Below are positions 935 through 38,065 of a stretch of DNA of 64,000 bases, in pieces. The notes under the pieces are model-generated. The model was given only the letters and a program-made list of their open reading frames with translations. It had not been told where the DNA came from and did no database searches. Positions within the stretch are counted from its first letter, which is position 1; each line of letters begins with the position of its first letter. A program made the position numbers and the translations under genes. Origin of the DNA: Escherichia coli (lineage in GTDB: Bacteria > Pseudomonadota > Gammaproteobacteria > Enterobacterales > Enterobacteriaceae); assembly GCF_046105845.1 (NCBI RefSeq), contig NZ_CP151004.1; one strand, given 5' to 3'.

Positions 935-1000
<66 letters not shown>

Positions 1001-4184: not shown

Positions 4185-4228
4185 AACCCTACCTTACTTG
4201 TGACTGATTTTTAAAAGAACCCGGGAAA

Positions 4229-4848: not shown

Positions 4849-4869
4849 CGCATTTTTAACAAGCTGGCA

Positions 4870-5841
4870 TTACTGTTGCAATTCTTTCTCAGTGAAGAGA
4901 TCGGCAAACAATGCGGTGCTTAAATAACGCTCACCCGATGACGGTAGAATAACCACAATATTCTTGTTGGTAAAGCTTTCATCTTCTTGTAGTTTCAACG
5001 CCGCAGCAACAGCTGCTCCAGAAGAGATACCTGCAAGAATACCTTCTTCTTCCATCAGACGACGCGCGGTAGAAATGGCTTCTTCATTGGTGATGCCAAT
5101 GACTTTATCGACCAGCTTGAGATCGAGGTTCGCCGGGATAAAACCAGCGCCAATACCCTGAATTTTATGCGGGCCAGGTTTAATCTCTTCACCTGCCAGC
5201 GCCTGGGCGATAACTGGAGAATCGGTTGGCTCAACGGCGACAGAGATAAGATCGGTCTTGCCTTTGGTGCCTTTAATGTAGCGGCTGACGCCGGTCAGCG
5301 TACCGCCAGTCCCAACGCCAGCAATAAATACATCAACCTGACCGTCGGTATCTTCCCAGATCTCCGGACCGGTGGTTTTTTCGTGAATTTCAGGGTTTGC
5401 CGGATTGCTGAATTGTTGCAGCAGCAGGTATTTCTCTGGATTGCTGGCGACAATTTCTTCTGCTTTTTGGATTGCGCCTTTCATGCCTTTAGCACCTTCG
5501 GTCAGCACCAGGTTTGCACCTAACGCTTTCAGCAGCTTGCGGCGTTCAATACTCATGGTTTCTGGCATGGTCAGGGTGAGTTTGTAACCGCGAGCGGCAG
5601 CGACATAGGCCAGTGCAATCCCGGTATTACCGCTGGTCGGTTCAACCAGTTCAACGCCTGGTTTCAGCACGCCGCGCTTTTCGGCATCCCAAATCATGTT
5701 GGCACCGATACGGCACTTAACGCTGAAGCTGGGGTTACGAGATTCCACCTTCGCCAGAATGCGTCCGTTACCGATGCGATTCAGGCGAACCAGCGGCGTG
5801 TGACCGATAGTCAGCGAGTTATCTTCAAAAATCTTACTCAT
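4870..5841 (-). CDS. cysK: Cysteine synthase A (O-acetylserine sulfhydrylase A)
   Basis: 323-aa [47 protein letters not shown]... recognised as CysK. Confidence 0.95.
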
Positions 5842-6025
5842 GGCCTGTCCTTAACTGTATGAAATTGGGATACAACAGGTAGCATACCCGCTCAGAGAAT
5901 ATGCGGAAGTAAGGATTTAGCATATCTATATGCAGAAGGGAAATAATGACATGCAAGATGGAATAAGGGGCGGCATAAGCCACCCCTGTTTCACACAAGC
6001 GGTTTACAAAATAACCGGTAGATTG

Positions 6026-12783: not shown

Positions 12784-12859
12784 TGGTGGGTCGTGCAGGA
12801 TTCGAACCTGCGACCAATTGATTAAAAGTCAACTGCTCTACCAACTGAGCTAACGACCC
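12784..12859 (-). tRNA. lysV: tRNA-Lys (anticodon UUU)
   Basis: Reverse complement matches canonical E. coli tRNA-Lys including CCA end. Confidence 0.95.
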
Positions 12860-12863
12860 GAAG

Positions 12864-12939
12864 TGGTGGGTGATGACGGGATCGAACCGCCGACCCCCTC
12901 CTTGTAAGGGAGGTGCTCTCCCAGCTGAGCTAATCACCC
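12864..12939 (-). tRNA. valY: tRNA-Val (anticodon UAC)
   Basis: Reverse complement matches canonical E. coli tRNA-Val(UAC) including CCA end. Confidence 0.95.
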
Positions 12940-12985
12940 ACTTCGGTACTTCACATTTTTACAAGAAATTTAGCTGGTGAGAAAG

Positions 12986-13061
12986 TGGTGGGTGATGACG
13001 GGATCGAACCGCCGACCCCCTCCTTGTAAGGGAGGTGCTCTCCCAGCTGAGCTAATCACCC
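12986..13061 (-). tRNA. valX: tRNA-Val (anticodon UAC)
   Basis: Second identical tRNA-Val copy, 46-bp spacer. Confidence 0.95.
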
Positions 13062-13105
13062 ACTTCTCAATTTCTTGCTACACGGCGGAGACTACATAAA
13101 GTAGT

Positions 13106-13181
13106 TGGTGGGTGATGACGGGATCGAACCGCCGACCCCCTCCTTGTAAGGGAGGTGCTCTCCCAGCTGAGCTAATCACCC
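13106..13181 (-). tRNA. valU: tRNA-Val (anticodon UAC)
   Basis: Third identical tRNA-Val copy; first gene of the operon. Confidence 0.95.
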
Positions 13182-15879: not shown

Positions 15880-15955
<76 letters not shown>

Positions 15956-15994
15956 AATTTTGCACCCAGCAAATTTGGTACGTAAACGCATCGT

Positions 15995-16070
<76 letters not shown>

Positions 16071-20045: not shown

Positions 20046-21293
<1,248 letters not shown>

Positions 21294-21318
21294 TTCAACT
21301 GGCGTCGTACCAGGCATC

Positions 21319-21412
21319 ACTGGCGGATGCGGCGTAAAACGCCTTATCCGCCCTATGCGTTAAAGAGACGGTTTGTAGGTCTGATAAGACGCGCTAGCGT
21401 CGCATCAGGCAT
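21319..21412. repeat. REP/BIME element (two inverted REP units) downstream of mntH
   Basis: ggcggatgcggcgtaaaacgccttatccgccctat and tgtaggtctgataagacgcgctagcgtcgcatcaggc match the E. coli REP palindrome family. Confidence 0.8.
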
Positions 21413-21434
21413 TGTGCTCCATTGGCGAATGTGT

Positions 21435-21761
21435 TTAATGGCGGTGTCCATGTCCGCGGCCTTTTCCACGATGATCGTCACGATCGCGCCAGCCTTCACG
21501 ATAGCCACGCTCATACGCTTTACGCTTATCCCAGCCACGATGGTAGCCATTATCATGACGCCACCAGCGGTTCTTACGCCATTCATAATTGCGATGCCAG
21601 TAGTCACGGTCGCGCCAGTGACCACCGTCCCAGTAATTACCGTAATGATCGCGATCGCCAATTTGTAATTTGATTGATGGCAGTAGGGTGATTTCACCTG
21701 CGTTTGCCGCAAGCGGGGTAAATGCCATCAGGGCGGCCGCCAGAAACAGTGACCTGAACAT
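21435..21761 (-). CDS. ypeC: Secreted His/Arg/Trp/Asp-rich protein YpeC (DUF2502)
   Basis: 108-aa ORF with signal peptide and repetitive charged/aromatic composition. Confidence 0.75.
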
Positions 21762-21875
21762 TGTTATTCTCCTTCACGATCGAAGCCGTCAGCGGCCTGT
21801 TAACGCAATATTACGGGGAGGTAAAGCCCCGTATCATCGCCATAACTCTTAAATCATAAAGGAGAGCATTTTTTG

Positions 21876-23132
21876 CTAAACGTTATCGTGGGGGGGCTGT
21901 TGCTTCGGACGATTGACCATCATCATCGGCTTACCTGCTAATAACAGCCATGCCGGAAGCATGACGATACAGAGCAGCGGTAGCAATGTGGTATTGGGTA
22001 CAACGACTGCCGCCATAAAAAGACTTAACCAGCCATCGCGTGTTACCACCAGCACGATGCCGAGAATAGCGCAGGAAACGGTTATTGCCGCTGGAACGGC
22101 GGGAACGTGCTCATGCAGCATCAACCCTAATGCCACCCCGACAAACACTGCCGGGAAGATTCGCCCACCGCGAAAGCCACTGGCGGCAGCAACGACCAGG
22201 GCGGCAAGTTTAATTACCGCCAGCAAAAAGTAATCGCTGGTGCTGAAAGCCTGATTTGCCACCATCTGCTGCATCTCATCCAGCCCTTTAAACAGCGAAA
22301 CTGGTCCACCCATAACCCCCAGAATACCGAGAATAAATCCGCCAATACCCAGCACGAGCACCGGATTTTTCATTTGATGCATCATCGCGTGCAACCGTGG
22401 TAAGCACCATACGGCGACCATCCCTGCTGCGATGGCAATCGCCGCGACAATTGCACCGCTGAGAATATCGGTCATTTCCATTTTTCCGTAATGCGCAATG
22501 GGCAGTGAAAAATGGGGATGGAAAAATAATCCGGTAGTAAGTGCACCAGCTGCTGCCGCCATTAACGGCGCAAAAAGACGATCCCATAGCGGAACTTCAC
22601 TACTACCATTTAAGGTTTGCGAAAATATCAACGCCGCCGCAACAGGTGTGCCAAACAGTGCGCCGATGGTGCCGGCAGAGGCTAAAATAGTCCACTCCAT
22701 TCGGTTGACGCGCGGTAACAGACGAGCGCCAATGGCAACCGCAAGGGCGATATTGACGGTCATGATCGGATGTTCCGGCCCCAGGCTGACGCCGCCAGCA
22801 AGACCGAGAATTAATGCTACGATAAGTCCAGGTAGCGCAGAGGGCGGAACCGGTGCGCCGATCAGCGGTTCACAGGCGGGGTCTGGTCCAGCATGCCCCT
22901 GGCTGAAACGGATAACCAACCCCACCGCAATACCTGTTAGCGTTAATATGGCGATGATCCAGAAAGGTGAATCCTGAGCTATCCCCAGAGTTCCCGGCAG
23001 TCGTTGCCAGAGCAAATTCTGTAATACCGAGGCGATTTTCATCACCACAATCAGAATAAGACTGGACGCAATCCCAATTGCCACGGCGGGGAGCGATAAT
23101 AACAACATGGTTCTGGCTCGCGGATGGAGCAT
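21876..23132 (-). CDS. yfeO: ClC-like voltage-gated chloride channel family membrane protein
   Basis: 418-aa polytopic membrane ORF; synteny between ypeC and glk. Confidence 0.75.
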
Positions 23133-23335
23133 GTTCTATTCCTTATGCGGGGTCAGATACTTAGTTTGCCCAGCTTGCAAAAAGGCATCGCTGCAATTGG
23201 TGCTGAAACGATAAAGTAATTGTGTGACCCAGATCGATATTTACAGGGAGCCTGCCTTTCCGGCGTTGTTGTTATGCCCCCAGGTATTTACAGTGTGAGA
23301 AAGAATTATTTTGACTTTAGCGGAGCAGTTGAAGA

Positions 23336-24301
23336 ATGACAAAGTATGCATTAGTCGGTGATGTGGGCGGCACCAACGCACGTCTTGCTCTGTGTGATAT
23401 TGCCAGTGGTGAAATCTCGCAGGCTAAGACCTATTCAGGGCTTGATTACCCCAGCCTCGAAGCGGTCATTCGCGTTTATCTTGAAGAACATAAGGTCGAG
23501 GTGAAAGACGGCTGTATTGCCATCGCTTGCCCAATTACCGGTGACTGGGTGGCAATGACCAACCATACCTGGGCGTTCTCAATTGCCGAAATGAAAAAGA
23601 ATCTCGGTTTTAGCCATCTGGAAATTATTAACGATTTTACCGCTGTATCGATGGCGATCCCGATGCTGAAAAAAGAGCATCTGATTCAGTTTGGTGGCGC
23701 AGAACCGGTCGAAGGTAAGCCTATTGCGGTTTACGGTGCCGGAACGGGGCTTGGGGTTGCGCATCTGGTCCATGTCGATAAGCGTTGGGTAAGCTTGCCA
23801 GGCGAAGGCGGTCACGTTGATTTTGCGCCGAATAGTGAAGAAGAGGCCATTATCCTCGAAATACTGCGTGCAGAAATTGGTCATGTTTCGGCGGAACGCG
23901 TGCTTTCTGGCCCAGGACTGGTGAATTTGTATCGCGCAATTGTTAAAGCCGACAACCGCCTGCCAGAAAATCTCAAGCCAAAAGATATTACCGAACGCGC
24001 GCTGGCTGACAGCTGCACCGATTGCCGCCGTGCGTTGTCGCTGTTTTGCGTCATTATGGGCCGTTTTGGCGGCAATCTGGCGCTCAATCTCGGGACATTT
24101 GGCGGCGTGTTTATTGCGGGTGGTATCGTGCCGCGCTTCCTTGAGTTCTTCAAAGCCTCTGGTTTCCGTGCCGCATTTGAAGATAAAGGGCGCTTTAAAG
24201 AATATGTCCATGATATTCCGGTGTATCTCATCGTCCATGACAATCCGGGTCTTCTCGGTTCCGGTGCACATTTACGCCAGACCTTAGGCCACATTCTGTA
24301 A
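23336..24301 (+). CDS. glk: Glucokinase
   Basis: 321-aa [24 protein letters not shown]... recognised as Glk. Confidence 0.95.
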
Positions 24302-24519
24302 CTCCTTCCTGTTATATCGGGAGGTAACTCTCCCGATAATCTTTTAAATCATACAGTTAATTCAATTTTCCTTTGTGTCCCCTCACAAGGCCGACCTGCG
24401 TCACACTTCCGTACAGCGGGATTAATTCTCCAGTAAATGCATTATTTGTCTGGTAACGGCGATTTGTTTTGCACGTTCATAATTTCACTCGTCAACTATC
24501 ACTGAACGAGGAATTAACG

Positions 24520-24846
24520 ATGAGTAAGAAACTGATTGCCTTATGTGCCTGCCCGATGGGCCTGGCTCACACCTTTATGGCCGCTCAGGCGCTGGAAGAA
24601 GCGGCGGTAGAAGCCGGTTATGAAGTGAAAATTGAAACCCAGGGTGCGGACGGCATCCAGAACCGCCTGACGGCGCAGGATATCGCCGAAGCGACCATCA
24701 TCATCCACTCCGTGGCGGTTACCCCGGAAGATAACGAACGTTTCGAATCACGCGACGTTTATGAAATCACTTTGCAGGACGCAATTAAAAATGCTGCGGG
24801 CATCATCAAAGAAATCGAAGAGATGATTGCCTCTGAACAACAGTAA
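24520..24846 (+). CDS. fryB: PTS fructose-like enzyme IIB component (start taken at MSKKLIALCACPMG)
   Basis: Small ORF with Cys phosphorylation-site motif (LCACPMGLAHT) typical of fructose-family EIIB. Confidence 0.85.
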   Translation: MSKKLIALCACPMGLAHTFMAAQALEEAAVEAGYEVKIETQGADGIQNRLTAQDIAEATIIIHSVAVTPEDNERFESRDVYEITLQDAIKNAAGIIKEIEEMIASEQQ

Positions 24847-24867
24847 TATTCGACAGGGATAATTGTT

Positions 24868-26115
24868 ATGGCCATTAAAAAACGCAGTGCAACCGTTGTG
24901 CCTGGCGCATCCGGTGCGGCAGCGGCAGTTAAGAATCCGCAGGCCTCTAAAACCAGCTTCTGGGGTGAACTCCCGCAGCATGTGATGTCAGGGATTTCAC
25001 GCATGGTGCCGACCTTAATTATGGGCGGTGTGATCCTCGCTTTCAGCCAGCTGATTGCTTATAGCTGGCTTAAAATTCCTGCTGAGATCGGCATCATGGA
25101 TGCTCTTAATAGCGGGAAATTCTCCGGTTTCGACCTCTCCTTACTTAAATTTGCCTGGCTGTCGCAGTCCTTCGGCGGCGTGTTGTTTGGTTTCGCCATT
25201 CCGATGTTTGCTGCATTTGTGGCGAACTCTATAGGTGGCAAACTGGCGTTTCCGGCTGGTTTTATCGGCGGCTTGATGTCTACCCAGCCGACGCAACTGC
25301 TGAACTTCGATCCCAGCACTATGCAATGGGCGACCTCTTCGCCGGTGCCGTCCACCTTCATTGGTGCGCTGATTATTTCTATCGTTGCCGGTTACCTTGT
25401 GAAATGGATGAACCAGAAAATCCAGTTACCGGATTTCCTGTTAGCGTTCAAAACCACATTTTTGCTACCGATTCTTTCCGCCATTTTTGTCATGCTGGCG
25501 ATGTACTACGTCATCACCCCCTTTGGCGGCTGGATCAACGGCGGTATTCGTACCGTGCTGACTGCCGCAGGTGAGAAGGGCGCGCTGATGTACGCGATGG
25601 GGATCGCCGCGGCGACAGCAATCGACCTTGGTGGCCCGATCAACAAAGCCGCAGGTTTCGTTGCCTTCAGCTTTACCACGGACCACGTATTACCGGTCAC
25701 CGCACGTTCTATCGCTATCGTTATTCCGCCGATTGGTCTGGGTCTGGCGACCATTATTGACCGTCGTTTAACCGGCAAACGCCTGTTCAGTGCTCAGCTT
25801 TATCCGCAGGGTAAAACCGCCATGTTCCTGGCCTTTATGGGGATCAGTGAAGGTGCGATTCCGTTTGCACTGGAAAGCCCCATCACCGCCATTCCGTCGT
25901 ATATGGTCGGCGCGATTGTCGGCTCAACCGCCGCTGTCTGGCTGGGCGCAGTGCAATGGTTCCCGGAATCCGCTATCTGGGCATGGCCACTGGTCACTAA
26001 CCTCGGCGTCTACATGGCGGGGATCGCGCTGGGGGCAGTCATAACTGCGCTGATGGTGGTGTTCCTGCGTCTGATGATGTTCCACAAAGGTAAATTGTTA
26101 ATCGATAGCCTGTAA
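24868..26115 (+). CDS. fryC: PTS fructose-like enzyme IIC permease component
   Basis: 415-aa polytopic membrane ORF downstream of fryB. Confidence 0.85.
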
Positions 26116-26129
26116 GAAGGACAATCCTG

Positions 26130-27215
26130 ATGACATTACTCGCTTCGCTGCGCGACTGGCTTAAGGAGCAACAACTGGATGCGGTGCTTCTCTCCTCACG
26201 GCAGAACAAACAGCCGCATCTGGGGATCTCCACCGGATCAGGCTATGTGGTGATTAGCCGTGTAAGTGCGCACATTCTGGTGGATTCGCGCTACTACGCG
26301 GATGTCGAAGCCCGCACGCAAGGCTACCAGCTGCATTTGCTTGACGCGACGAACACGCTTACCACTATCGTCAATCAAATCATTGCCGATGAGCAGTTGC
26401 AAGCGCTCGGTTTTGAAGGCCAGCAGGTATGTTGGGAAACCGCGCACCGCTGGCAGTCTGAACTCAATGCGAAACTGGTTAGCGCCACGCCGGATGTGCT
26501 GCGGCAAATCAAAACGCCAGAGGAGGTGGAGAAAATCCGCCTCGCCTGTGGGATTGCCGATCGCGGTGCTGAGCATATTCGCCGCTTTATTCAGGCGGGG
26601 ATGAGCGAGCGCGAGATAGCCGCTGAACTGGAGTGGTTTATGCGCCAGCAGGGCGCAGAAAAAGCCTCTTTCGATACCATTGTCGCCAGCGGCTGGCGTG
26701 GGGCGCTGCCGCACGGCAAAGCCAGCGACAAGATTGTTACAGCGGGCGAGTTTGTCACTCTCGATTTCGGTGCGCTGTATCAGGGCTACTGCTCTGATAT
26801 GACGCGCACCTTGCTGGTGAATGGCGAAGGGGTGAGCGCCGAATCTCACCCGCTGTTTAACGTCTATCAAATTGTCCTGCAGGCACAGCTCGCAGCAATC
26901 TCCGCGATTCGCCCCGGCGTGCGCTGCCAGCAGGTTGACGACGCCGCGCGCCGGGTCATTACAGAAGCAGGTTATGGCGACTATTTCGGTCATAACACCG
27001 GTCATGCTATCGGCATTGAAGTCCATGAAGAGCCGCGTTTTTCACCGCGGGATACCACGACGCTACAGCCAGGCATGTTACTGACCGTGGAGCCGGGGAT
27101 TTATTTGCCAGGGCAAGGGGGCGTGCGCATCGAAGATGTTGTGCTGGTCACCCCGCAAGGCGCAGAAGTGCTCTACGCCATGCCGAAAACAGTGTTGCTC
27201 ACGGGAGAGGCATAA
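26130..27215 (+). CDS. ypdF: Xaa-Pro aminopeptidase (M24 family)
   Basis: 361-aa ORF with pita-bread-fold metal-binding motifs ([20 protein letters not shown]). Confidence 0.85.
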
Positions 27216-28252
27216 TGGATTTATCGTTATTAAAAGCGTTGAGCGAGGCAGATGCGATAGCCTCCTCGGAACAGGAAGTACGGCAGATCCTGCTGGAAGA
27301 AGCGGATCGCCTGCAAAAAGAAGTGCGATTTGATGGGCTGGGATCGGTGCTGATCCGCCTCAATGAATCGACAGGTCCGAAGGTGATGATCTGTGCGCAT
27401 ATGGACGAAGTGGGATTTATGGTGCGCAGCATCTCCCGCGAAGGGGCGATCGATGTGTTGCCGGTTGGCAATGTACGCATGGCTGCCCGCCAGCTTCAGT
27501 CGGTGCGTATCACTACCCGTGAAGAGTGCAAAATTCCAGGCCTACTTGACGGCGACCGGCAGGGGAATGATGTCAGCGCCATGCGCGTGGACATTGGTGC
27601 GCGCTCGTATGACGAAGTGATGCAGGCGGGAATTCGTCCAGGCGATCGCGTCACCTTTGATACAACTTTTCAGGTTCTCCCTCACCAGCGGGTGATGGGG
27701 AAAGCCTTTGATGATCGCCTCGGTTGCTATCTGCTGGTGACGTTACTACGTGAGCTGCACGACGCCGAACTGCCTGCGGAGGTGTGGCTGGTGGCAAGTT
27801 CCAGCGAAGAGGTGGGATTACGCGGCGGGCAAACTGCCACCCGCGCGGTGTCGCCGGACGTCGCCATTGTGCTTGATACCGCCTGCTGGGCGAAAAACTT
27901 TGATTATGGCGCGGCTAACCATCGTCAGATTGGTAACGGGCCGATGCTGGTGTTAAGCGATAAATCGCTGATTGCGCCGCCAAAACTTACCGCGTGGATT
28001 GAAACCGTGGCGGCAGAAATTGGCGTGCCGTTGCAGGCGGATATGTTCAGCAACGGTGGCACGGACGGTGGGGCGGTGCACTTAACCGGCACTGGCGTAC
28101 CCACAGTGGTGATGGGGCCTGCCACCCGCCACGGACATTGCGCGGCATCGATTGCCGATTGTCGCGACATTTTGCAGATGCAGCAACTTTTATCTGCCCT
28201 TATTCAACGTCTTACGCGTGAGACGGTTGTTCAACTGACGGATTTCAGATGA
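27215..28252 (+). CDS. ypdE: M42-family aminopeptidase
   Basis: 345-aa ORF; start overlaps the ypdF stop. Confidence 0.85.
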
Positions 28253-28276
28253 TCTCCTGATTAACCCGGAGCGGTT

Positions 28277-30772
28277 ATGCTAACGATTCAATTTCTCTGT
28301 CCTTTGCCTAACGGTCTGCATGCTCGTCCGGCGTGGGAACTTAAAGAACAGTGCAGCCAGTGGCAAAGCGAAATCACCTTCATCAACCATCGCCAGAACG
28401 CAAAGGCAGATGCCAAAAGCTCGCTGGCGCTGATTGGCACTGGCACTTTATTTAATGACAGTTGCAGCCTGAACATTAGCGGCAGCGATGAAGAGCAGGC
28501 GCGGCGCGTGCTGGAAGAGTACATCCAGGTGCGCTTTATCGACAGCGACAGCATTCAGCCGACGCAGGCAGAACTGACGGCGCATCCGCTGCCGCGTTCA
28601 TTAAGCCGTCTGAATCCTGATTTACTGTACGGCAATGTGCTGGCAAGCGGCGTCGGCGTGGGTACGCTGACCCTGTTACAGAGCGACAGCCTCGACAGTT
28701 ATCGGGCCATCCCGGCCAGTGCGCAAGACTCCACCCGGCTGGAGCACAGCCTGGCAACGCTTGCCGAGCAACTGAACCAGCAGCTGCGTGAGCGTGACGG
28801 CGAAAGCAAAACTATCCTCAGCGCCCATTTGTCGCTGATTCAGGATGATGAATTTGCAGGCAATATCCGTCGCCTTATGGCAGAACAGCATCAGGGGCTG
28901 GGGGCGGCGATCATCAGCAATATGGAGCAGGTTTGCGCCAAACTATCTGCTTCTGCCAGCGATTATCTGCGCGAGCGGGTCAGCGACATTCGCGATATCA
29001 GCGAACAGTTGCTGCATATCACCTGGCCGGAACTGAAGCCGCGCAACAATCTGGTGCTGGAAAAACCGACTATTCTGGTGGCCGAGGATTTAACCCCAAG
29101 CCAGTTTTTGAGCCTCGATTTAAAAAATCTTGCGGGCATGATTCTGGAGAAAACCGGGCGCACCTCGCATACCCTGATTCTGGCCCGTGCCTCGGCGATC
29201 CCGGTACTGAGTGGCTTGCCGCTGGATGCGATCGCGCGCTATGCCGGGCAACCGGCAGTGCTTGACGCCCAGTGCGGCGTGCTGGCGATTAACCCTGATG
29301 ACGCGGTGAGCGGTTATTATCAGGTCGCGCAGACGCTGGCGGATAAACGCCAAAAACAACAGGCGCAGGCCGCCGCGCAGCTGGCCTATTCCCGTGATAA
29401 CAAGCGTATTGATATTGCGGCGAATATCGGCACCGCTCTGGAAGCGCCAGGCGCGTTTGCCAACGGCGCGGAAGGTGTTGGGCTGTTCCGTACTGAAATG
29501 CTCTATATGGATCGCGACAGCGCGCCGGACGAGCAGGAGCAATTTGAAGCCTACCAGCAGGTGCTACTGGCGGCGGGCGACAAGCCGATTATCTTCCGCA
29601 CGATGGACATCGGCGGCGATAAAAGCATTCCTTATCTGAATATTCCCCAGGAAGAGAACCCGTTCCTCGGCTATCGCGCGGTACGTATTTACCCGGAATT
29701 TGCGGGCCTGTTCCGCACTCAACTGCGGGCCATTTTGCGCGCCGCCAGTTTCGGCAACGCCCAGTTGATGATCCCAATGGTTCACAGCCTCGATCAGATC
29801 TTATGGGTGAAGGGCGAGATCCAAAAAGCGATCGTTGAGCTTAAGCGCGATGGCCTGCGTCATGCAGAGACGATTACGCTGGGTATCATGGTGGAAGTGC
29901 CGTCGGTGTGCTACATCATCGATCACTTCTGCGATGAGGTAGATTTCTTCAGTATCGGCTCCAACGATATGACCCAGTATCTGTATGCGGTCGATCGTAA
30001 TAACCCGCGCGTATCGCCGCTGTATAACCCGATTACGCCATCGTTCCTGCGCATGTTGCAGCAGATTATTACCACTGCGCATCAGCGGGGTAAATGGGTA
30101 GGCATTTGCGGTGAACTGGGCGGTGAAAGCCGTTATCTGCCGCTACTGCTTGGGCTGGGCCTGGACGAGTTAAGTATGAGTAGCCCGCGCATTCCGGCGG
30201 TGAAAAGCCAGCTTCGTCAACTGGATAGCGAGGCGTGTCGGGAACTGGCGCGTCAGGCATGTGAATGCCGCAGCGCGCAGGAAATTGAAGCGTTACTCAC
30301 CGCCTTTACGCCGGAAGAAGACGTTCGCCCACTGCTGGCGCTGGAGAATATCTTTGTTGATCAGTCCTTTAGCAATAAAGAGCAGGCGATCCAGTTCCTG
30401 TGCGGTAACCTCGGCGTTAACGGGCGCACTGAACATCCGTTCGAGCTGGAAGAGGATGTCTGGCAGCGGGAAGAGATTGTTACCACCGGCGTTGGTTTTG
30501 GCGTAGCGATCCCGCACACCAAATCTCAGTGGATCCGTCATTCCAGTATCAGCATTGCCCGGCTGGTGAAACCGGTTGACTGGCAGTCAGAAATGGGCGA
30601 AGTCGAACTGGTGATCATGCTGACACTGGGCGCTAACGAAGGGATGAATCATGTGAAAGTCTTCTCGCAGCTGGCGCGTAAACTGGTGAATAAAAACTTC
30701 CGCCAGTCGCTGTTCGCCGCGCAAGATGCGCAAAGCATCCTGACGCTGCTGGAAACGGAATTAACCTTCTGA
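28277..30772 (+). CDS. fryA: Multiphosphoryl transfer protein (HPr-like, enzyme I-like and EIIA-like domains fused)
   Basis: 831 aa; N-terminal HPr-like segment (LPNGLHARPA), central EI-homology sharing motifs with ptsI in this window, C-terminal EIIA-Fru-like domain. Confidence 0.9.
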   Translation: MLTIQFLCPLPNGLHARPAWELKEQCSQWQSEITFINHRQNAKADAKSSLALIGTGTLFNDSCSLNISGSDEEQARRVLEEYIQVRFIDSDSIQPTQAELTAHPLPRSLSRLNPDLLYGNVLASGVGVGTLTLLQSDSLDSYRAIPASAQDSTRLEHSLATLAEQLNQQLRERDGESKTILSAHLSLIQDDEFAGNIRRLMAEQHQGLGAAIISNMEQVCAKLSASASDYLRERVSDIRDISEQLLHITWPELKPRNNLVLEKPTILVAEDLTPSQFLSLDLKNLAGMILEKTGRTSHTLILARASAIPVLSGLPLDAIARYAGQPAVLDAQCGVLAINPDDAVSGYYQVAQTLADKRQKQQAQAAAQLAYSRDNKRIDIAANIGTALEAPGAFANGAEGVGLFRTEMLYMDRDSAPDEQEQFEAYQQVLLAAGDKPIIFRTMDIGGDKSIPYLNIPQEENPFLGYRAVRIYPEFAGLFRTQLRAILRAASFGNAQLMIPMVHSLDQILWVKGEIQKAIVELKRDGLRHAETITLGIMVEVPSVCYIIDHFCDEVDFFSIGSNDMTQYLYAVDRNNPRVSPLYNPITPSFLRMLQQIITTAHQRGKWVGICGELGGESRYLPLLLGLGLDELSMSSPRIPAVKSQLRQLDSEACRELARQACECRSAQEIEALLTAFTPEEDVRPLLALENIFVDQSFSNKEQAIQFLCGNLGVNGRTEHPFELEEDVWQREEIVTTGVGFGVAIPHTKSQWIRHSSISIARLVKPVDWQSEMGEVELVIMLTLGANEGMNHVKVFSQLARKLVNKNFRQSLFAAQDAQSILTLLETELTF

Positions 30773-30774
30773 CG

Positions 30775-31632
30775 TTAGCCCTGAAAACGGGCGCTGTACT
30801 CTCCCGGCGTCAGGCCAAACTGACGCCGGAAAACGCGACAAAAATAGTCGCTGTCCGGAAAACCGCAACGCTGTGCCACTTCATGAATCGACAGATGATA
30901 TTTCTGCAAAATCATCCTCGCCTTCGCCATTCGCACCCAACGCACATATTCGATAAAACGCATTGTTCCATGCTGCGCAAACAGTTTTGACAGATGATTG
31001 GGCGTGATATTAAAAAACTGCGCCACGCTCTCACGGGTGAGCGGCTGGGCATAATTATCCTGAACCCAGTTACAAATGCTGTGATAGAGAAAATCGCCGC
31101 GCGGCTGCGAATTGCCCGGCGGCATATTCACCACGTTACGGCAAAGATGCAGCAAACTTAACACCAGCGGCTGAATGATATTCTGCTCCAGCGGCGAACG
31201 GCTAAGATGGGTGAGGGCAGTAAGCATTGCTTCACCTTCGCCGCGTTGCAGGCTGGGAAGTTGGATCTGGCGAGCAGGATGTAACAACGACGTGGTGCGG
31301 CTATCGTAAAATGATAAGCCAAGCCAGGTCGGTGCGAACACCAGGCTTAACAGCATCACCGGTTTGTTGTTGACCGGTAAATTAGCCGCGCGTGCCGGAA
31401 TAAACAGCATTTCTCCTTCCACCATACGTTGCTGCTTTGCTTCCAGCAGATTGCCGTATTCGCCGCGTAGCACGATATCCAGACGGGGAAAATCAATACA
31501 TAAACTGCCCACTGGCAATGAGGCAGGCTGGCTGGCAAACCAGACGCGCCCCAGTAGTTGCGGGTTAAGCACCAGGCCGCTGAACAGATCGGCGAAAAAT
31601 TGTTGATCGGCGGGCAAGCCTGGTGCTTTCAT
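30775..31632 (-). CDS. ypdC: AraC-family transcriptional regulator
   Basis: 285-aa ORF with C-terminal AraC-type HTH. Confidence 0.8.
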   Translation of the reverse strand: MKAPGLPADQQFFADLFSGLVLNPQLLGRVWFASQPASLPVGSLCIDFPRLDIVLRGEYGNLLEAKQQRMVEGEMLFIPARAANLPVNNKPVMLLSLVFAPTWLGLSFYDSRTTSLLHPARQIQLPSLQRGEGEAMLTALTHLSRSPLEQNIIQPLVLSLLHLCRNVVNMPPGNSQPRGDFLYHSICNWVQDNYAQPLTRESVAQFFNITPNHLSKLFAQHGTMRFIEYVRWVRMAKARMILQKYHLSIHEVAQRCGFPDSDYFCRVFRRQFGLTPGEYSARFQG

Positions 31633-31644
31633 GAAAGTTCCCGA

Positions 31645-32379
31645 TTAAAGATGCATTAACTGGCGGAATTCTTTAACTTTGCTGCGGCTGACCGGCACTT
31701 CAAAATCCAGATCTTTCAGCCGCAGAATATAGGTGTTATTAAACCACGGTTCGATCTCGCGGATTTTGTTCAGATTGACACAAAATGAGCGATGGCAGCG
31801 GAAAAAATGCGACGGCGGCAGCTTGCTGCAAAACTCGGTAATGTTCATCGGCATTACGTAGGATTCACGCCGCGTATAGACAAAGGTCATTTTCTCGTGC
31901 GCTTCGGCGTAATAGATATCGTTAATTGGCGTGACAATGATTCGCTCATCTTTCACCAGATTAATGGTGTCATTCTCACGCGTTACCGTCGCGGCAGGCG
32001 TACTGCTGGTCTGCTGTTGTTGCCAGGCTGCTTCCAGTTTTTGCAGCATCCCGGTAATGCGTGACTCCTGATACGGTTTGAGAATGTAGTCAAACGCTTC
32101 CAGTTCAAATGCTTCTACCGCATGTTCTTTCCACGCGGTGATGAACACAATAAACGGTTTATGGGCGAACTGGCTGATGTTTTGCGCCAGCAACACACCG
32201 TCCAGCGACGGAATATTGATATCCAGAAAAATGGCGTCGACGCGGTTATGCTGCAAAAACTTCAACACGTCCAGACCGTCGTCAAAGGTGCCGACAATCT
32301 CCATCTGGCTGTGCTCTTTAATTAGCCAGCTCAGTTCCTGTTGTGCCAGGAATTCGTCTTCAACAATGATGACTTTCAC
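31645..32379 (-). CDS. ypdB: LytTR-family response regulator of the YpdA/YpdB two-component system (start taken at GTG, VKVIIVEDEF)
   Basis: CheY-like receiver plus C-terminal LytTR domain. Confidence 0.85.
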   Translation of the reverse strand: MKVIIVEDEFLAQQELSWLIKEHSQMEIVGTFDDGLDVLKFLQHNRVDAIFLDINIPSLDGVLLAQNISQFAHKPFIVFITAWKEHAVEAFELEAFDYILKPYQESRITGMLQKLEAAWQQQQTSSTPAATVTRENDTINLVKDERIIVTPINDIYYAEAHEKMTFVYTRRESYVMPMNITEFCSKLPPSHFFRCHRSFCVNLNKIREIEPWFNNTYILRLKDLDFEVPVSRSKVKEFRQLMHL

Positions 32380-32393
32380 AATATCACTCCGGC

Positions 32394-34091
32394 TCAAAGC
32401 AATAACGTAGCCTGTGAGGCGACTGGGGTGCGTTGGTTAGGAATGTAAAACGCAATTTCCGTCCCCGGTTCCAGGCGGCGGATATGCAGCCCCTCGCCAT
32501 ACAATAACTTCACGCGATGATGGACATTCAGCAGGCCAATTTTATTGCCCGGCATTTCGTTCGCTTCGACCCGCTCAATCACCTTTGGATCGATGCCGTG
32601 CCCGGTATCCCGCACCGCAATGCGTACCCGATTACCGCACTCTGCAACGCTGATGGTGACAACGCCTTTACCTTTGCAAGGCTGAATACCGTGGACAATG
32701 GCGTTCTCCACCAGCGGCTGGATCAGCAGGCTGGGAATGCAGCAATTCACCTCTTCATCAATATCATAGATAACCGTCAGCTTGTCGCCAAAGCGGGCCT
32801 GCTCAATGGCAATATAGTCTTTAATTTGATACAGCTCTTTTTTGATATCGATTTGCTCATCATCTTTTAATTCAATGTTATAGCGCAGATAACGCGACAG
32901 ATTAAAGATCAGCTGGCGAGCGGTATCCGGATTCAGACGGATTGACGATGAAATAGCGTTCAAAGCGTTAAACAGGAAATGGGGATTAATTTTGCTTTGC
33001 AGGGCGCGAAGCTCTGCCTTATTTGCCATTTCACGTAGCTGCTCGGCGCGTGAAACCTCCAGTTGCGTGGAGATGATTTGCGACAGACCGACCGCCATTT
33101 CCTGTAATGATGACGTAATCTGATGCGCGTGGCAGTAGTAAATTTTCAGTGTTCCGGTCACAACGCCTTTCTCCCACAATGGGATCACCAGCATGGAATG
33201 AATCTCTGGTGTGCGGTGGGCTTCATCATTGTTTTTAATGATGATTTTTCCGTAATTCATCGCCTGTCGGGTAGTCGGGCTAATGAAGTCATCGCCATTC
33301 TGATAGTTGTGTTCACCCACGCCAACATAGGCCAGCACATGATCGGTATTGGTAATCGCCACCGCATCGGCGTGAATATCATCGCGGATAATTTCACAAA
33401 CTTTGCGTAATGACTCGCTATTGACATGGCGAAACAGCGGCAGCGTTTTGTTGGCGATATCCAGCGCCAGCTTGGCCTGCCGCGCGGCGCTGGCCTCTTT
33501 TTCGCCCTCAACGCTTTGTACCAGCAACACAATAAAGCCGATACAGACGCTGCCGAGGATCATTGGAATCCCGATTTTAGAGACGATATCGATCCCCAAC
33601 GCGGTAGTTGGTGCCCAGACAATCACCAGAATCATGGTCAACGTTTCACATAACATGCCGCCGAGAATACCGACGCGCCAGCGCTGTGCTTTAGGGATTT
33701 TCAGGTTGATCCAGCCCGATATACAACCCGCCAGAATGCTGGTGATAAAGCAGGGGATCGCCGTCACGCCGCCGATATCAATTAAATAACGGTGAATACC
33801 TGCGATCACGCCGGTAATAATGCCTACCCACGGGCCAAACAGAATTCCGCCTGACATCACCGCGATAATACGTACGTTCACCAGCGAGCCTTCTACGGGA
33901 ACGCCGGACCAGGTGCTGAACAGGGCGAACAGCGAGAAAATGGCGGTAACGGCGAGCAGCTCTTTCGGTGAGTGTGCCGACTTGTGCAACAGTTCGCGAA
34001 ACAGGCGGATACGGATGAGAAAGAACAGGCAGATAAGCATTAACGCTGCCCGATCGAAGACCGCCAGCAGCATGTTGAATATTTCGTGCAC
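32394..34091 (-). CDS. ypdA: LytS-type sensor histidine kinase of the YpdA/YpdB system
   Basis: 565-aa ORF with N-terminal multi-TM domain, GAF-like region and His-kinase region; operon with ypdB. Confidence 0.85.
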
Positions 34092-34467
34092 GGGTGACTC
34101 TGAATAAGGATTAAACCTCTATGATAGGTAACCTGAAGGCTGATGACCAGCAGGCCGTTTTTGAGGAAAAACCACAATTTTAAAAGGGGATTGAAAGATA
34201 AATGGTGTATTAGCAATGCATCTCTTGATAATGCACATCTGCTTGGTAAATTTATTGAAATTATAATGTTAATAAAATGAGTGGTAATTTTCTTGTTAGC
34301 GCAGATAAATTTCCTGTTTTTGAAGTGGAGTTCCTCATTTAAAGCCATTGATAAAAATGTTCTAAAACGCTGGACAGACAGAAATTAATCAGGCTATTTT
34401 CAAAACAGCCACCATCGTGGCAGCGTCGCTCGGACGGTCCGGGCGCTAACGTTAATCTGAGGAAATT

Positions 34468-35706
34468 ATGGCTGACACTCGCCCTGAACGTCGCTTTACG
34501 CGCATTGATCGTCTCCCGCCCTACGTTTTTAATATTACCGCTGAACTGAAAATGGCTGCGCGTCGGCGCGGCGAAGATATTATCGATTTCAGTATGGGTA
34601 ACCCGGACGGTGCGACTCCGCCGCACATCGTCGAAAAATTATGTACGGTGGCCCAGCGCCCGGACACGCATGGTTACTCCACTTCACGCGGCATTCCGCG
34701 GCTACGTCGCGCCATTTCACGCTGGTATCAGGATCGCTACGACGTTGAAATCGACCCGGAATCAGAAGCCATCGTCACTATTGGTTCGAAAGAGGGACTG
34801 GCACATCTGATGCTGGCGACGCTGGATCATGGTGACACGGTGCTGGTGCCGAATCCAAGCTACCCCATTCATATTTATGGCGCGGTGATTGCCGGGGCGC
34901 AGGTACGCTCAGTGCCGCTGGTGGAAGGTGTCGATTTCTTCAATGAACTGGAGCGCGCCATTCGCGAAAGTTATCCGAAACCGAAGATGATGATCCTCGG
35001 CTTCCCGTCGAATCCAACCGCGCAATGCGTGGAGCTGGAGTTCTTCGAAAAGGTTGTGGCGCTGGCGAAACGCTACGATGTGCTGGTGGTCCATGACCTG
35101 GCCTATGCCGATATCGTCTACGATGGCTGGAAAGCGCCGTCAATCATGCAGGTGCCGGGTGCACGCGATGTGGCGGTCGAGTTCTTTACGCTGTCGAAAA
35201 GCTACAACATGGCGGGCTGGCGTATCGGCTTTATGGTTGGCAACAAAACGCTGGTCAGCGCGCTGGCACGTATTAAAAGCTATCACGATTACGGCACCTT
35301 TACGCCGTTGCAGGTGGCAGCGATTGCGGCGCTGGAGGGCGATCAACAGTGCGTGCGCGACATTGCTGAACAGTACAAACGCCGCCGTGATGTACTGGTA
35401 AAAGGGCTGCATGAAGCGGGCTGGATGGTCGAAATGCCGAAGGCTTCGATGTATGTCTGGGCGAAAATCCCGGAACCGTATGCTGCCATGGGCTCGCTGG
35501 AATTTGCCAAGAAGCTGCTGAACGAAGCGAAGGTCTGTGTCTCTCCGGGGATTGGCTTTGGCGACTACGGCGACACGCATGTTCGCTTTGCACTGATTGA
35601 AAACCGCGACCGTATTCGTCAGGCGATTCGTGGAATTAAAGCGATGTTCCGTGCCGATGGTTTACTACCCGCCAGCAGCAAACATATTCACGAAAATGCG
35701 GAATAA
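34468..35706 (+). CDS. alaC: Glutamate-pyruvate aminotransferase (PLP-dependent)
   Basis: 412-aa ORF with aminotransferase class I features ([12 protein letters not shown]). Confidence 0.9.
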
Positions 35707-35770
35707 ACACCGACCTCAAAAATGCAAACAGGAGCCTGATGGCTCCTGTTTTTCATTGCACAGTTTGCTT

Positions 35771-35842
35771 TTAGATCATCAGGGCAAAAGTACCGGCCCA
35801 AACGATGACCATAAAAGAAATGCCCATAAAGAAATATTTCAC
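35771..35842 (-). CDS. ypdK: Small membrane protein YpdK (23 aa, GTG start)
   Basis: Minus-strand translation GTG AAA TAT TTC... gives (M)KYFFMGISFMVIVWAGTFALMI; below the ORF-track size cutoff. Confidence 0.7.
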   Translation of the reverse strand: MKYFFMGISFMVIVWAGTFALMI

Positions 35843-36197
35843 TTTACATCTCTCCGCGTAATTACTGTTACGCCTGAATGACTTCATTACACCTGATACA
35901 GTGAGTTGACACCGGGCAAAACGACCTTAAAAGTCCTGTATTTTACCGTGGGCATCACCCCAGAATTCTGAGCTAAACTGCTCCAGACGGCGCTAATGTA
36001 CGCCTAAAACTGAAACGAGACAAGAGGCATTTTCTTATTTACTTTTAGTAACTTACAGGTGTCTCATATCGGCGACAGTTTAATTTCTGGCGGTAATAAT
36101 TAGAGATTCAGCGAAGGAAAAAACCTTAAGAAAAAAGCCATAAAAACCATGAGGTTATTATGGCTGATTTGAGGAGGGAAAGAGTAAGAGCAGTTTG

Positions 36198-37118
36198 TTA
36201 AATGTATAGCGACGATTCTCCCACCGGGCGCGTTTTAAAGCGACGGTGGATCCAGAGGTACTGCTCCGGTGCGCGCATGATCTCTTTTTCGATAATCTTG
36301 TTCATATAGGCAGCGGCTTGATTTTCATCTGCCGGGTAGCCTTCCATCTCTGGGGTGATGTACAAACGATATCCGCTGTAATCCGCTTTTCTTACCATCG
36401 TTACGGTTAACATGGCTGCGCCAGAGAGACGTGAAAGGACATACGTACCATTGGTTGTGGCAACATTTTCCACCGCAAAGAACGGCGCGAAGGAGCTGCC
36501 TTTACGACCATAATCCTGATCGGGAGCAAACCATACCGCTTCACCTTTCTTCAGTGCACCGACAATGCCGCGCAGATTATTTCTGCCGATCATCGCTTTG
36601 TTAGAGCGCATGCGCCCACGGGTCTGCACCCATTCCATCAGCTGATTATTATGTGGACGATAGGTAGCCATCATTGGTTGGCACAGTCCCATCACGCGGC
36701 CGCCCAGTTCCAGCGACATAAAATGGACGCCGACAACCATTACGCCGCGATTTTGCATTTGTGCGCGTTTAAGGTTATCCAACCCTTCAACATCAAACCA
36801 TTTACGTACGCGACTGTCGGGCCAGAACCACGCCATGCCGGTTTCTACCAGCGCCATGCCGAGTGAACGAAAGTTTTCGGCAATCATCTTCTCGCGTTCT
36901 TCCGCAGAATGCTGTGGGAAACAAAGTTCCAGGTTTTTACGGGCGATAGATTCACGCCGTTTCAGGAATGGTCGCGCTATTGCGCCAATACGCGTGCCGA
37001 GAAAGCAGAGAACAGGATAAGGAAGCTGTACCCAAAGCCAGAGTACACCAAGCCCAAACCATGTGAGCCAGTAGCGAGGATGTAGAAACTCGCGGGAAAA
37101 TTTGCATTGTGGAAACAT
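36198..37118 (-). CDS. lpxP: Lipid A biosynthesis palmitoleoyl acyltransferase (start taken at MFPQCKFSREF)
   Basis: Recognised as LpxP/LpxL-family late acyltransferase. Confidence 0.9.
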   Translation of the reverse strand: MFPQCKFSREFLHPRYWLTWFGLGVLWLWVQLPYPVLCFLGTRIGAIARPFLKRRESIARKNLELCFPQHSAEEREKMIAENFRSLGMALVETGMAWFWPDSRVRKWFDVEGLDNLKRAQMQNRGVMVVGVHFMSLELGGRVMGLCQPMMATYRPHNNQLMEWVQTRGRMRSNKAMIGRNNLRGIVGALKKGEAVWFAPDQDYGRKGSSFAPFFAVENVATTNGTYVLSRLSGAAMLTVTMVRKADYSGYRLYITPEMEGYPADENQAAAYMNKIIEKEIMRAPEQYLWIHRRFKTRPVGESSLYI

Positions 37119-37470
37119 AGTTACCTTCTGTAGATACGAATTGTTGTATCGCAGAAGATTCCATGTCGACAGCGGTACACTCAATTGGTTGGGCCATCAT
37201 GTACGACAATGGTTCCTGTAAAGAGTGTAAAGACTAGTCAGGACATAACCACGAGGAGCATGAATGCGGTGGCTCTACTTTATCACTGGCTGACTGCTTT
37301 CAGCTACTGATTATTAATCGTGCAAAGTAAAAAGTTTTCCCCACGCAATAGTGTTGCATTTAAGGTGCTGTTTTCATTGATGCTTAGCAAAAATTGCCAG
37401 AGGTTAAGGATTGTCTTACTATTAAAGTGACTGAAGTTACAGGTTTTTTAGCGCGGCAGGAGGTTGAGCT

Positions 37471-37713
37471 ATGATTTATTTATGGATGTTTCTCGCCCTG
37501 TGTATTGTCTGCGTAAGCGGCTACATTGGTCAGGTCCTGAACGTGGTATCGGCGGTCTCTTCTTTCTTCGGCATGGTGATCCTCGCTGCACTCATTTATT
37601 ACTTCACCATGTGGTTAACTGGCGGTAATGAACTGGTGACGGGGATATTTATGTTTCTTGCCCCTGCTTGTGGCTTGATGATTCGCTTTATGGTGGGGTA
37701 TGGCAGGCGGTAG
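37471..37713 (+). CDS. yfdY: DUF2545 small inner-membrane protein
   Basis: 80-aa hydrophobic ORF at the K-12 yfdY position. Confidence 0.7.
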   Translation: MIYLWMFLALCIVCVSGYIGQVLNVVSAVSSFFGMVILAALIYYFTMWLTGGNELVTGIFMFLAPACGLMIRFMVGYGRR

Positions 37714-37789
37714 TGGGTCAGGATGGTTCATTTGGGCAGGTGTTCACATCAGCATCAGACATGATTGTTCACCTGCCATGTGACAGACG

Positions 37790-38065
37790 CTATCGCACAG
37801 GATGAATAAGATAATTCGCCTTTGTCGAAAAAGGGGGCGTAATGTCTTCTGTGAGATTTAATGGTGGCGCATCTTCTCTCATCTTAAACAAAATCGCCTG
37901 TGATGGCTGAAGTTTTGTAGAGTGTGTGGTCGTCATCGCTGACGTTTTTTCCGTCTCTTTATAGCTCGCCTCACTACCACCACCAGAAATAGAAAATGCA
38001 AAAACATTGCATGCCATAATAGAGACCAATAAAAATAAGCTAAAAAGCATTAAGTTTACTTTCAT
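37790..38065 (-). CDS. ypdI: Putative small secreted/lipoprotein YpdI
   Basis: 91-aa ORF with signal peptide and lipobox-like MAC motif. Confidence 0.7.
   Translation of the reverse strand: MKVNLMLFSLFLLVSIMACNVFAFSISGGGSEASYKETEKTSAMTTTHSTKLQPSQAILFKMREDAPPLNLTEDITPPFSTKANYLIHPVR

Follow-up and report, generated by a model that had tools for sequence, protein, structure and literature searches.

The fry locus of Escherichia coli: phosphotransferase system genes and two aminopeptidase genes in an arrangement that recurs in three phyla

The fry locus of Escherichia coli was analysed in a window of 64,000 nucleotides (nt) taken from contig NZ_CP151004.1 (assembly GCF_046105845.1), where genes of a phosphotransferase system (PTS) are found together with two aminopeptidase genes. 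The gene calls were derived from the open reading frames (ORFs) of the window, from a megablast comparison with 5426 complete E. coli genomes and from the RefSeq annotation of the best match. Between glk and alaC, the ORFs and the annotation place five genes on the plus strand: fryB (24520-24846; PTS EIIB, 108 amino acids), fryC (24868-26115; PTS EIIC of the fructose family, 415 amino acids), ypdF (26130-27215; M24B aminopeptidase, 361 amino acids), ypdE (27215-28252; M42 aminopeptidase, 345 amino acids) and fryA (28277-30772; a fused HPr-Enzyme I (EI)-EIIA(Fru) phosphoryl-transfer protein of 831 amino acids). These are followed on the minus strand by ypdC (30775-31632; AraC-family regulator, 285 amino acids), ypdB (31645-32379; LytTR response regulator) and ypdA (32394-34091; LytS-type histidine kinase). 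The protein roles that an earlier note, made from the letters of the window, had named for all eight genes are borne out by their Pfam domains. The tight packing of the five plus-strand genes, described in the same note, is confirmed by the ORFs, by the RefSeq annotation and by the junctions read base by base, with gaps of 21 nt between fryB and fryC, 14 nt between fryC and ypdF and 24 nt between ypdE and fryA, while ypdF and ypdE do share their boundary nucleotide in a one-base overlap (gcaTAATGg, base 27215). In a consensus scan, promoter-like and terminator-like sites within the five-gene block were no more frequent than expected by chance. Because of this and of the tight spacing, fryB-fryC-ypdF-ypdE-fryA look like one operon, and a microarray study treats fryBC-ypdF-ypdE-fryA as a single unit (PMC2731931).

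The convergent orientation of ypdC, ypdB and ypdA directly downstream, also part of the earlier description, holds at the base level, with the stops of fryA (30770-30772) and ypdC (30775-30777, minus strand) separated by 2 nt. Stops this close leave no space for a terminator, and therefore the two transcripts are bound to overlap, with the possibility of mutual interference. Stops 2-3 nt apart, or overlapping by 4 nt, are also found in Pseudocitrobacter, Superficieibacter, Enterobacter and Hafnia, and three Citrobacter loci differ at this junction by a 368-nt gap or an additional gene.

The locus was detected by megablast in 5424 of the 5426 complete E. coli genomes, in 5413 of them with a match that spans 80% or more of the query. 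It belongs to the ordinary core genome of E. coli and is a conserved arrangement rather than a chance pattern. The GC content of the operon (window 25000-30500) is 54-58%, versus 47-52% for the flanking genes. A recent transfer from a low-GC donor was also considered, and the composition is uninformative in this respect, being mildly raised and not AT-rich. Across window 21000-38000, the closest complete genome is 98.6% identical, with a patchy distribution of 0-17 mismatches per 500 nt and no indels over these 17 kb. Only 4-5 recorded contigs carry the rare FryC and YpdF alleles; those of YpdE, YpdC and YpdA are common, YpdA being identical to the widespread YPDA_ECOLI allele. An origin from Shigella or from an Escherichia other than E. 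coli, considered in view of the 98.6% identity, was rejected, since the proteins have exact matches in E. coli records and the mismatches are distributed as a patchy mosaic. The pattern suggests recombination in a lineage that is poorly sampled.

With regard to the PTS proteins, FryB matches PF02302 (PTS_IIB) with 71.2 bits against a cut-off of 23.6, and its active-site motif CACPMGLAHT is intact, including Cys11. FryC matches PF02378 (PTS_EIIC). Its best NCBIfam matches are all fructose-family IIC models, of which TIGR01427 gives 157.2 bits, just under the cut-off of 157.55, and the others score far under theirs. The fructose-family label of the earlier note is thus upheld at the level of the family and does not serve as a pointer to the sugar. 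In FryA, the Pfam domains PTS-HPr (PF00381), the three EI domains (PF05524, PF00391 and PF02896) and PTS_EIIA_2 (PF00359) follow each other in this order, all above cut-off, and the protein scores 505.5 bits against TIGR01417 (cut-off 341.7). The phosphorylation motifs GLHARP (His15, HPr), TSH (His298, EI) and GVAIPH (His747, EIIA) are all found in it. The five domains in order bear out that the system has its own dedicated EI and HPr.

The diagnostic residues of the two peptidases are intact as well. YpdF matches PF01321 (Creatinase_N, 65.1 bits) and PF00557 (Peptidase_M24, 248.2 bits) and scores 810.9 bits against the equivalog model NF007310 (cut-off 393). Its metal ligands D212, D223, H292, E321 and E335 are conserved in 33 M24 proteins of the cassettes described below, no column showing more than one deviation. 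YpdE matches PF05343 (Peptidase_M42, 287.7 bits) and the equivalog model NF007421 (680.9 bits, cut-off 412), and the ligands H62, D64, D166/D167, E198/E199, D221 and H308 are invariant in an alignment of YpdE-like M42 proteins. Structures have been solved for both YpdF (PDB 5CNX) and YpdE (PDB 1YLO). Zheng et al. reportedly found in 2005 that YpdF removes Xaa-Pro and Met and that both YpdF and YpdE cleave ordinary peptides. YpdE is a characterised active aminopeptidase, a dodecameric form of which is mentioned as unpublished data, and specialists of the M42 family describe the reason why E. coli keeps three such enzymes as unstudied (PMC3511314). The other two M42 genes of E. coli, frvX and sgcX, likewise lie within PTS operons. 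In the mouse bladder, a ypdE deletion strain of UTI89 was outcompeted, with a competitive index of 0.297 (PMC8767336).

The association of these peptidases with PTS genes was followed beyond E. coli by scanning one genome per GTDB species with a YpdE-like alignment and mapping the gene neighbourhoods of the best 80 of more than 600 matches. Among ranks 1-10 by similarity to YpdE, PTS genes were found in nine loci (the tenth being cut by a contig end), an M24 gene in all ten and a gene for a PatB-type C-S lyase in none. At ranks 11-36, the corresponding counts were 23, 20 and 18 out of 26, and at ranks 37-80 they fell to 5, 1 and 4 out of 44. In a neighbour-joining tree of the surveyed loci, the M42 proteins of all the cassettes with PTS and M24 genes group in one clade, with FrvX as the next branch. 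M42 genes of this YpdE clade are found in PTS operons of Enterobacterales, Vibrio, Bacillota and Coriobacteriia, which belong to three phyla, and a homologue of the M24 peptidase YpdF is nearly always present, accompanied in most cases outside Proteobacteria by a PatB-family C-S lyase. Similar cassettes were retrieved by other searches. Plasmid and megaplasmid records searched with tblastn yielded those of Enterococcus gilvus (pCR1A) and E. raffinosus, with the order PRD regulator-IIA(Lac)-IIB-IIC(Lac)-M24-M42-aminotransferase, an M24 protein 36% identical to YpdF and a Lac-type IIC without meaningful similarity to FryC. In an HMMER search of 1.84 billion representative proteins, the closest relatives of YpdE outside the enterobacteria were 42-45% identical to it. 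For two of them, the contigs showed the order PRD regulator-M42-IIA(Lac)-IIB-IIC, and the longer contigs go on with M24, aminotransferase and alanine dehydrogenase genes.

Four layouts can be distinguished in this clade. In Enterobacterales, the order is IIB-IIC(Fru)-M24-M42-FryA, followed by the convergent AraC-family gene. In clostridia (Caproiciproducens, Hungatella, Enterocloster and Lachnospiraceae), it is PRD regulator-IIA(Fru)-IIB-IIC(Fru)-M24-M42-PatB, with a IIB protein 74-76% identical to FryB and a IIC protein 56-63% identical to FryC; the IIC of Caproiciproducens faecalis is 62% identical over its full length. Many Bacillota and Coriobacteriia present the order PRD regulator-M42-IIA(Lac)-IIB-IIC(Lac)-M24-PatB, and Vibrio and Photobacterium the order IIB-IIC(Lac)-M24-M42. 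Further examples come from Clostridium cavendishii, Olsenella and Collinsella. The permease family is therefore exchanged, fructose for lactose/cellobiose, while the M42 and M24 enzymes stay.

The comparison also yielded some observations on cassette surroundings. Within the lactose-family cassettes of six loci (L029, L033, L035, L036, L040 and L054), a gene for an RDD-family membrane protein of 190-230 amino acids is tightly spaced with the peptidase or PTS genes. Locus L007 carries, at positions 1-5862 and just upstream of its Lac-type cassette, a separate operon with the order PfkB-FruA-type IIABC-HAD-SIS-PfkB-class II aldolase, reminiscent of pathways that handle glycated amino acids or unusual ketoses. 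Two or three tandem M42 genes are found in many Anaerolineae and Clostridiales (L065, L071, L073, L074 and L089). Matches of about 700-790 amino acids were considered as possible M24-M42 fusions, and this was ruled out by Pfam, which identifies tandem M42-M42 proteins; some of the M42 proteins P0228, P0236, P0243, P0247, P0250, P0251, P0264 and P0291 are such tandem fusions.

The peptidases are no mere hitch-hikers, since M42 enzymes of the YpdE type and M24 enzymes of the YpdF type sit in PTS operons of three phyla and since the pair is kept even where the permease comes from a different PTS family. A functional coupling of PTS and peptidases is well supported by these gene neighbourhoods. 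The earlier note had read the combination as a sign of conjugate uptake; the coupling stands on the cassettes of three phyla, and the conjugate itself is supported in outline only. The recurrence of the pairing in three phyla makes the import of sugars bearing an amino acid or a short peptide probable.

A different account would take FryBC as a back-up PTS for a free fructose-like sugar, with YpdF and YpdE as general peptidases that merely share the transcript. FryC and the IIA domain of FryA do score best with fructose-family models, a common hexose requires no sugar-processing gene, and the aminopeptidase activity of YpdE has been characterised (PMC3511314). This account appears doubtful, as chance co-transcription is insufficient to place an M42 and M24 pair with PTS genes in three phyla and beside two unrelated permease families, and 39 of the 44 M42 loci at ranks 37-80 have no PTS link at all. 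The layouts also bear on the idea that Fry is a regulatory phosphorelay comparable to PTS-Ntr or DhaM, which would control the peptidases or YpdC and use FryC as a sensor and not as a transporter. The private HPr-EI-IIA fusion in Enterobacterales, the absence of catabolic genes from the operon and the lack of a growth substrate after decades (PMC5364489) agree with such a role. However, the IIC permease is full-length and 56-63% identical between Enterobacterales and Clostridia, and the Bacillota cassettes, which have no private EI or HPr and start with a PRD-type regulator, look like usual catabolic PTS operons, so that a phosphorelay seems very unlikely.

The import of a conjugate is further informed by the remaining cassette genes. 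The gene annotated as an aminotransferase encodes a C-S lyase of the PatB family, two of the three proteins tested scoring above the TIGR04350 cut-off of 340 (347.8 for L020 and 359.9 for L007). AlaC was considered as its E. coli counterpart and was ruled out, with 19% identity and a cassette enzyme that belongs to the PatB C-S lyase family. No PatB-type gene was found in the 10 Enterobacterales or the 3 Vibrionaceae loci surveyed, and no glycosidase, deglycase or sugar kinase gene in the YpdE-clade cassettes surveyed. In three loci of Jeotgalicoccus, Macrococcoides and Salinicoccus (L046, L050 and L051), a PatB-like gene lies directly 5' of the M42 gene in a neighbourhood free of PTS genes, so that PatB and M42 genes are also paired away from a PTS. 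The fry-like cassette of Caproiciproducens faecalis ends, 44 nt after PatB, in a gene for a class I mannose-6-phosphate isomerase (L020, 12278-13243). It encodes the sole sugar-phosphate enzyme among the YpdE-clade cassettes surveyed and hints at mannose as the possible sugar.

A second kind of PTS and M42 cassette, from a neighbouring M42 clade, combines a Lac-type PTS and two M42 genes with an Asparaginase_2 gene (glycosylasparaginase family), an M20 gene and a gene for a 6-phospho-glycosidase of the MupG family. It was found in L054, L078 and L081 (Lachnospiraceae) and in L044 and L052. The order in L054 is PRD regulator-RDD protein-IIA/IIB/IIC(Lac)-GRDB-like protein of 183 amino acids-two M42 genes-Asparaginase_2-M20-MupG-family 6-phospho-glycosidase-CutC-YitT. 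As judged from its gene content, this sister cassette could plausibly belong to a glycopeptide or muropeptide pathway, in keeping with the glycosylated peptide or amino-sugar conjugate suggested in the earlier note.

The near absence of glycosidase or sugar-phosphate enzymes from the surveyed cassettes could also be taken to mean that the imported compound is no sugar at all, and that a hydroxyl-bearing peptide or amino-acid derivative (of Hyp, Ser or Thr, for example) is phosphorylated directly by the PTS. The nearly constant presence of an Xaa-Pro type peptidase and the service of the same enzymes by two unrelated IIC families would suit this idea. It seems most improbable nonetheless: we know of no PTS that phosphorylates a peptide, and the mannose-6-phosphate isomerase of one cassette and the MupG-type 6-phospho-glycosidase of the sister cassette point to sugars.

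Conversely, if the substrate is a glycosylated compound, it might be deglycosylated without a glycosidase. In such a pathway, an O- or S-glycosylated amino acid or short glycopeptide, such as mannosyl-Ser/Thr or glycosyl-Cys, would be imported and phosphorylated on its sugar by the PTS. YpdE and YpdF would trim the flanking residues, Xaa-Pro bonds included, and a pyridoxal phosphate (PLP)-dependent enzyme of the PatB/MalY type would release the sugar phosphate by beta-elimination, together with pyruvate and ammonia. In E. coli, the PLP enzyme would have to be supplied in trans. The proposal is compatible with the cassettes because these hold no glycosidase, because PatB is conserved outside Proteobacteria and because a mannose-6-phosphate isomerase gene follows PatB in one case. 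It is put forward tentatively, as a rather doubtful elaboration.

With regard to regulation, the C-terminal part of YpdC matches PF12833 (HTH_18, 74.3 bits) and PF00165 (HTH_AraC, 49.1 bits). Residues 1-200 are not assigned to any Pfam family, and RhaR models align from residue 47, far under their cut-offs. A YpdC homologue (49-98% identity) is encoded convergently to fryA in all nine Enterobacterales loci long enough to include this position. In Escherichia, Citrobacter and Pseudocitrobacter, the operon is flanked by glk and ypdCBA-alaC; it comes after dcuC-rna in Enterobacter and Superficieibacter and after sbcDC in Hafnia, and neither ypdAB nor alaC is present at these last two sites. In the three loci without ypdAB beside fry, from Superficieibacter (L017), Enterobacter sp. 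ENT03 (L018) and Hafnia (L019), the ypdC homologue is still kept within a few bases of fryA. Since ypdC accompanies the operon at three chromosomal sites and ypdAB and alaC do not, the inherited unit, as read from gene order, is a six-gene module of fryBC-ypdFE-fryA and ypdC, and YpdC is proposed as the cognate regulator of the fry operon.

The two-component system beside fry consists of YpdB, with Response_reg and LytTR domains, and YpdA, with 5TMR-LYT, GAF, His_kinase (HisKA_3-type) and HATPase_c domains in Pfam. YpdA/YpdB are described as responsive to pyruvate, with yhjX as their target (PMC5552118). The earlier note had placed a pyruvate-responsive system next to fry: the adjacency is confirmed by the gene order, and a functional link is not, because the pair is gone from the locus in Enterobacter, Superficieibacter and Hafnia. 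By this comparison, ypdA and ypdB are probably lineage-specific neighbours outside the fry system. An alanine/pyruvate theme joining fry, YpdAB and alaC was considered as well and ruled out, ypdAB and alaC not being co-inherited with fry.

The region upstream of fryB was compared over 260 nt in 10 Enterobacterales loci with three different upstream neighbours, and three blocks are conserved in it despite the differing upstream genes. The first is a predicted CRP-like site on the plus strand (24390-24405, centre 24397.5) of the form GA-N6-TCACA (24393-24405), with a perfect right half, whose GA and TCACA columns are invariant in the alignment. The second is a 39-bp block (24419-24457, plus strand), predicted as an activator site of the AraC family, which contains the direct repeat CCAGTAA (24430) / CTGGTAA (24450) with an offset of 20 bp. 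It is the best-conserved stretch of the upstream region, is retained in Hafnia, Enterobacter and Superficieibacter, and occurs only once in the window. The third is a predicted -10 hexamer, CATAAT (24478-24483, plus strand), without a conserved -35 element; it reads cATAAT in nine of the ten aligned regions and CATACT in Hafnia. With a transcription start assumed near 24490, the CRP-like site would be centred at about -92.5, the repeat block would span about -71 to -33 and the hexamer would lie at -12 to -7. The consensus scan detected no full sigma-70 promoter upstream of fryB, as expected if the promoter is activator-dependent. A sigma-54 promoter was inspected by eye and rejected, the spacing of its GG/GC elements being off by one. 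The layout is predicted to be that of an AraC-type, CRP-assisted promoter, and the block at 24419-24457 is proposed as the YpdC binding site.

Taken together, these results lead to the proposal that the Fry PTS imports a conjugate of a sugar with an amino acid or a peptide, that YpdE and YpdF trim it in the cytoplasm and that YpdC and CRP control the operon, a proposal to which we give about an even chance. In this scheme, phosphoenolpyruvate would phosphorylate EI of FryA at His298, and the phosphoryl group would pass to His15 of HPr, His747 of EIIA and finally Cys11 of FryB. FryC would import a substrate with a sugar-like hydroxyl and an amino acid or short peptide, phosphorylated on entry, and the amino-acid part would be removed in the cytoplasm by the broad M42 enzyme YpdE and the M24B (Xaa-Pro type) enzyme YpdF. 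The remainder would be a common sugar phosphate that requires no dedicated catabolic enzyme. YpdC, on the direct-repeat block at about -71 to -33, would turn the operon on with the inducer, with CRP assisting at about -92.5. The kind of substrate, the sequence of reactions and the parts played by YpdC and CRP are inferred. The conjugate is favoured because the same enzymes are kept when the permease changes to another family, because the cassettes hold no sugar-cleaving enzyme and because the composition of the sister cassette suits a glycopeptide. Each of the rival explanations accounts for less of the comparative pattern.

Several points weigh against this proposal. As E. coli has no PatB-type gene in the operon, its pathway may be incomplete or different, and the exchange of permease families could also mean that each cassette has a different substrate. 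The aminopeptidase activity of YpdE and the reported cleavage of ordinary peptides would allow a general peptidase role. The neighbour maps rely on crude ORF calls of our own and on BLAST against a small reference set, the M42 tree is a simple neighbour-joining tree that carries no support values, and the promoter positions depend on the assumed start. In E. coli, a gap of 12 nt separates ypdC from the preceding ypdB, and ypdC seems to be co-transcribed with ypdAB; at this spacing, its expression may depend on the ypdA promoter. Furthermore, no peaks were obtained for YpdC in ChIP-exo under the conditions of that study (PMC8464067).

The last of these points also enters the suggestion that fry in E. 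coli is a cryptic remnant, left functionless by the loss of PatB from a horizontally acquired module. PatB is indeed missing in comparison with clostridial cassettes of the same gene order, binding by YpdC went undetected in ChIP-exo (PMC8464067), and an in-frame deletion of fryA is advantageous in prolonged LB culture (PMC5364489). Against this, all but two of the 5426 complete genomes retain the locus, every reading frame and catalytic residue is intact, the upstream regulatory blocks are kept across genera, and the ypdE mutant has a bladder-colonisation defect (PMC8767336), all of which makes a functionless remnant unlikely.

The conjugate proposal would have implications beyond this locus. 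Fry is one of several PTS systems of E. coli K-12 without a known substrate, and all three E. coli M42 genes lie in such operons. A 2017 paper gives the FryABC substrate as unknown (PMC5364489), and the literature searched holds no paper that defines it, in agreement with the earlier note, nor any that links M42 or M24 peptidases functionally to a PTS or describes an association of PTS, M42 and M24 genes. The fry genes were already catalogued, and the comparative cassette pattern is the main new result. If the cassettes of PTS, M42 and M24 genes, with or without PatB, do import sugar-amino acid or glycopeptide conjugates, they would represent a new class of PTS substrate and could help to explain the use of host or dietary glycopeptides by bacteria of the gut and the urinary tract, a use towards which the bladder fitness defect of the ypdE mutant points. 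The comparison also supplies a predicted regulator, YpdC, and a predicted operator, as well as tractable Gram-positive versions with PRD regulators. Elsewhere in the window, tRNA clusters at 12784-13181 (minus strand; Lys(ttt) and three Val(tac)) and 15880-16070 (plus strand; two Ala(ggc)) are ordinary for the region.

Among known systems, fry comes closest to PTS operons, of which it is an unusual variant. The frv operon (frvA-frvB-frvX-frvR) resembles it as a fructose-family PTS with an embedded M42 gene, FrvX being about 35% identical to YpdE. It differs from fry in having no M24 partner and no private EI or HPr, and its FrvR is not an AraC-type protein, being grouped with PRD-type regulators by BLAST and annotated as a PTS IIA subunit. 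The sgc operon (sgcX-sgcB-sgcC-sgcQ-sgcA-sgcE-sgcR) is likewise a PTS operon, with the M42 gene in first position. However, SgcX is a distant M42 protein outside the YpdE clade, the permease is of the galactitol family, no M24 gene is present, and sugar-phosphate enzymes (an epimerase homologue and SgcQ) are. The sgc genes are induced on nitrogen-containing carbon sources that support slow growth, and their function is still unknown (PMC13343008).

The cassettes of PTS, M42, M24 and PatB genes outside Proteobacteria are related to fry through the same M42 clade and through an M24 partner 36-47% identical to YpdF, and the clostridial ones share the order IIB-IIC(Fru)-M24-M42 with it in five species. 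The differences in Bacillota and Coriobacteriia are a PRD-type regulator in place of an AraC-type one, a IIA that stands alone and is not part of an HPr-EI-IIA fusion, the presence of the PatB-family C-S lyase and a permease that is mostly of the lactose/cellobiose family. A link between a PTS and a lyase is also known from malXY, in which a PTS permease gene is co-transcribed with that of a PLP-dependent beta C-S lyase of the MalY/PatB type, as in the non-proteobacterial cassettes. The malXY genes, which lie outside the window, have no peptidases and a permease of the glucose family.

The predicted fryB promoter can be compared with that of araBAD, in which a CRP site near -92.5 is combined with an activator site of direct repeats and a -10 without a -35 element. 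The CRP site, the direct repeat at about -71 to -33 and the -10 hexamer without a -35 element upstream of fryB would correspond to this layout, and the two systems differ in that Pfam does not assign the N-terminal domain of YpdC to the sugar-binding family of AraC. With regard to transport, the nearest characterised logic is that of MngA and MngB, a fructose-family PTS for 2-O-alpha-mannosyl-D-glycerate and a cytoplasmic hydrolase that splits the phosphorylated conjugate. FryC itself scores 101.7 bits against the MngA model, far under the cut-off of 763. In both cases, a conjugate of a sugar with a non-sugar acid would be imported and then split in the cytoplasm, with the difference that the hydrolase of the Mng system is a glycosidase (an alpha-mannosidase) and that no peptidase takes part in it.

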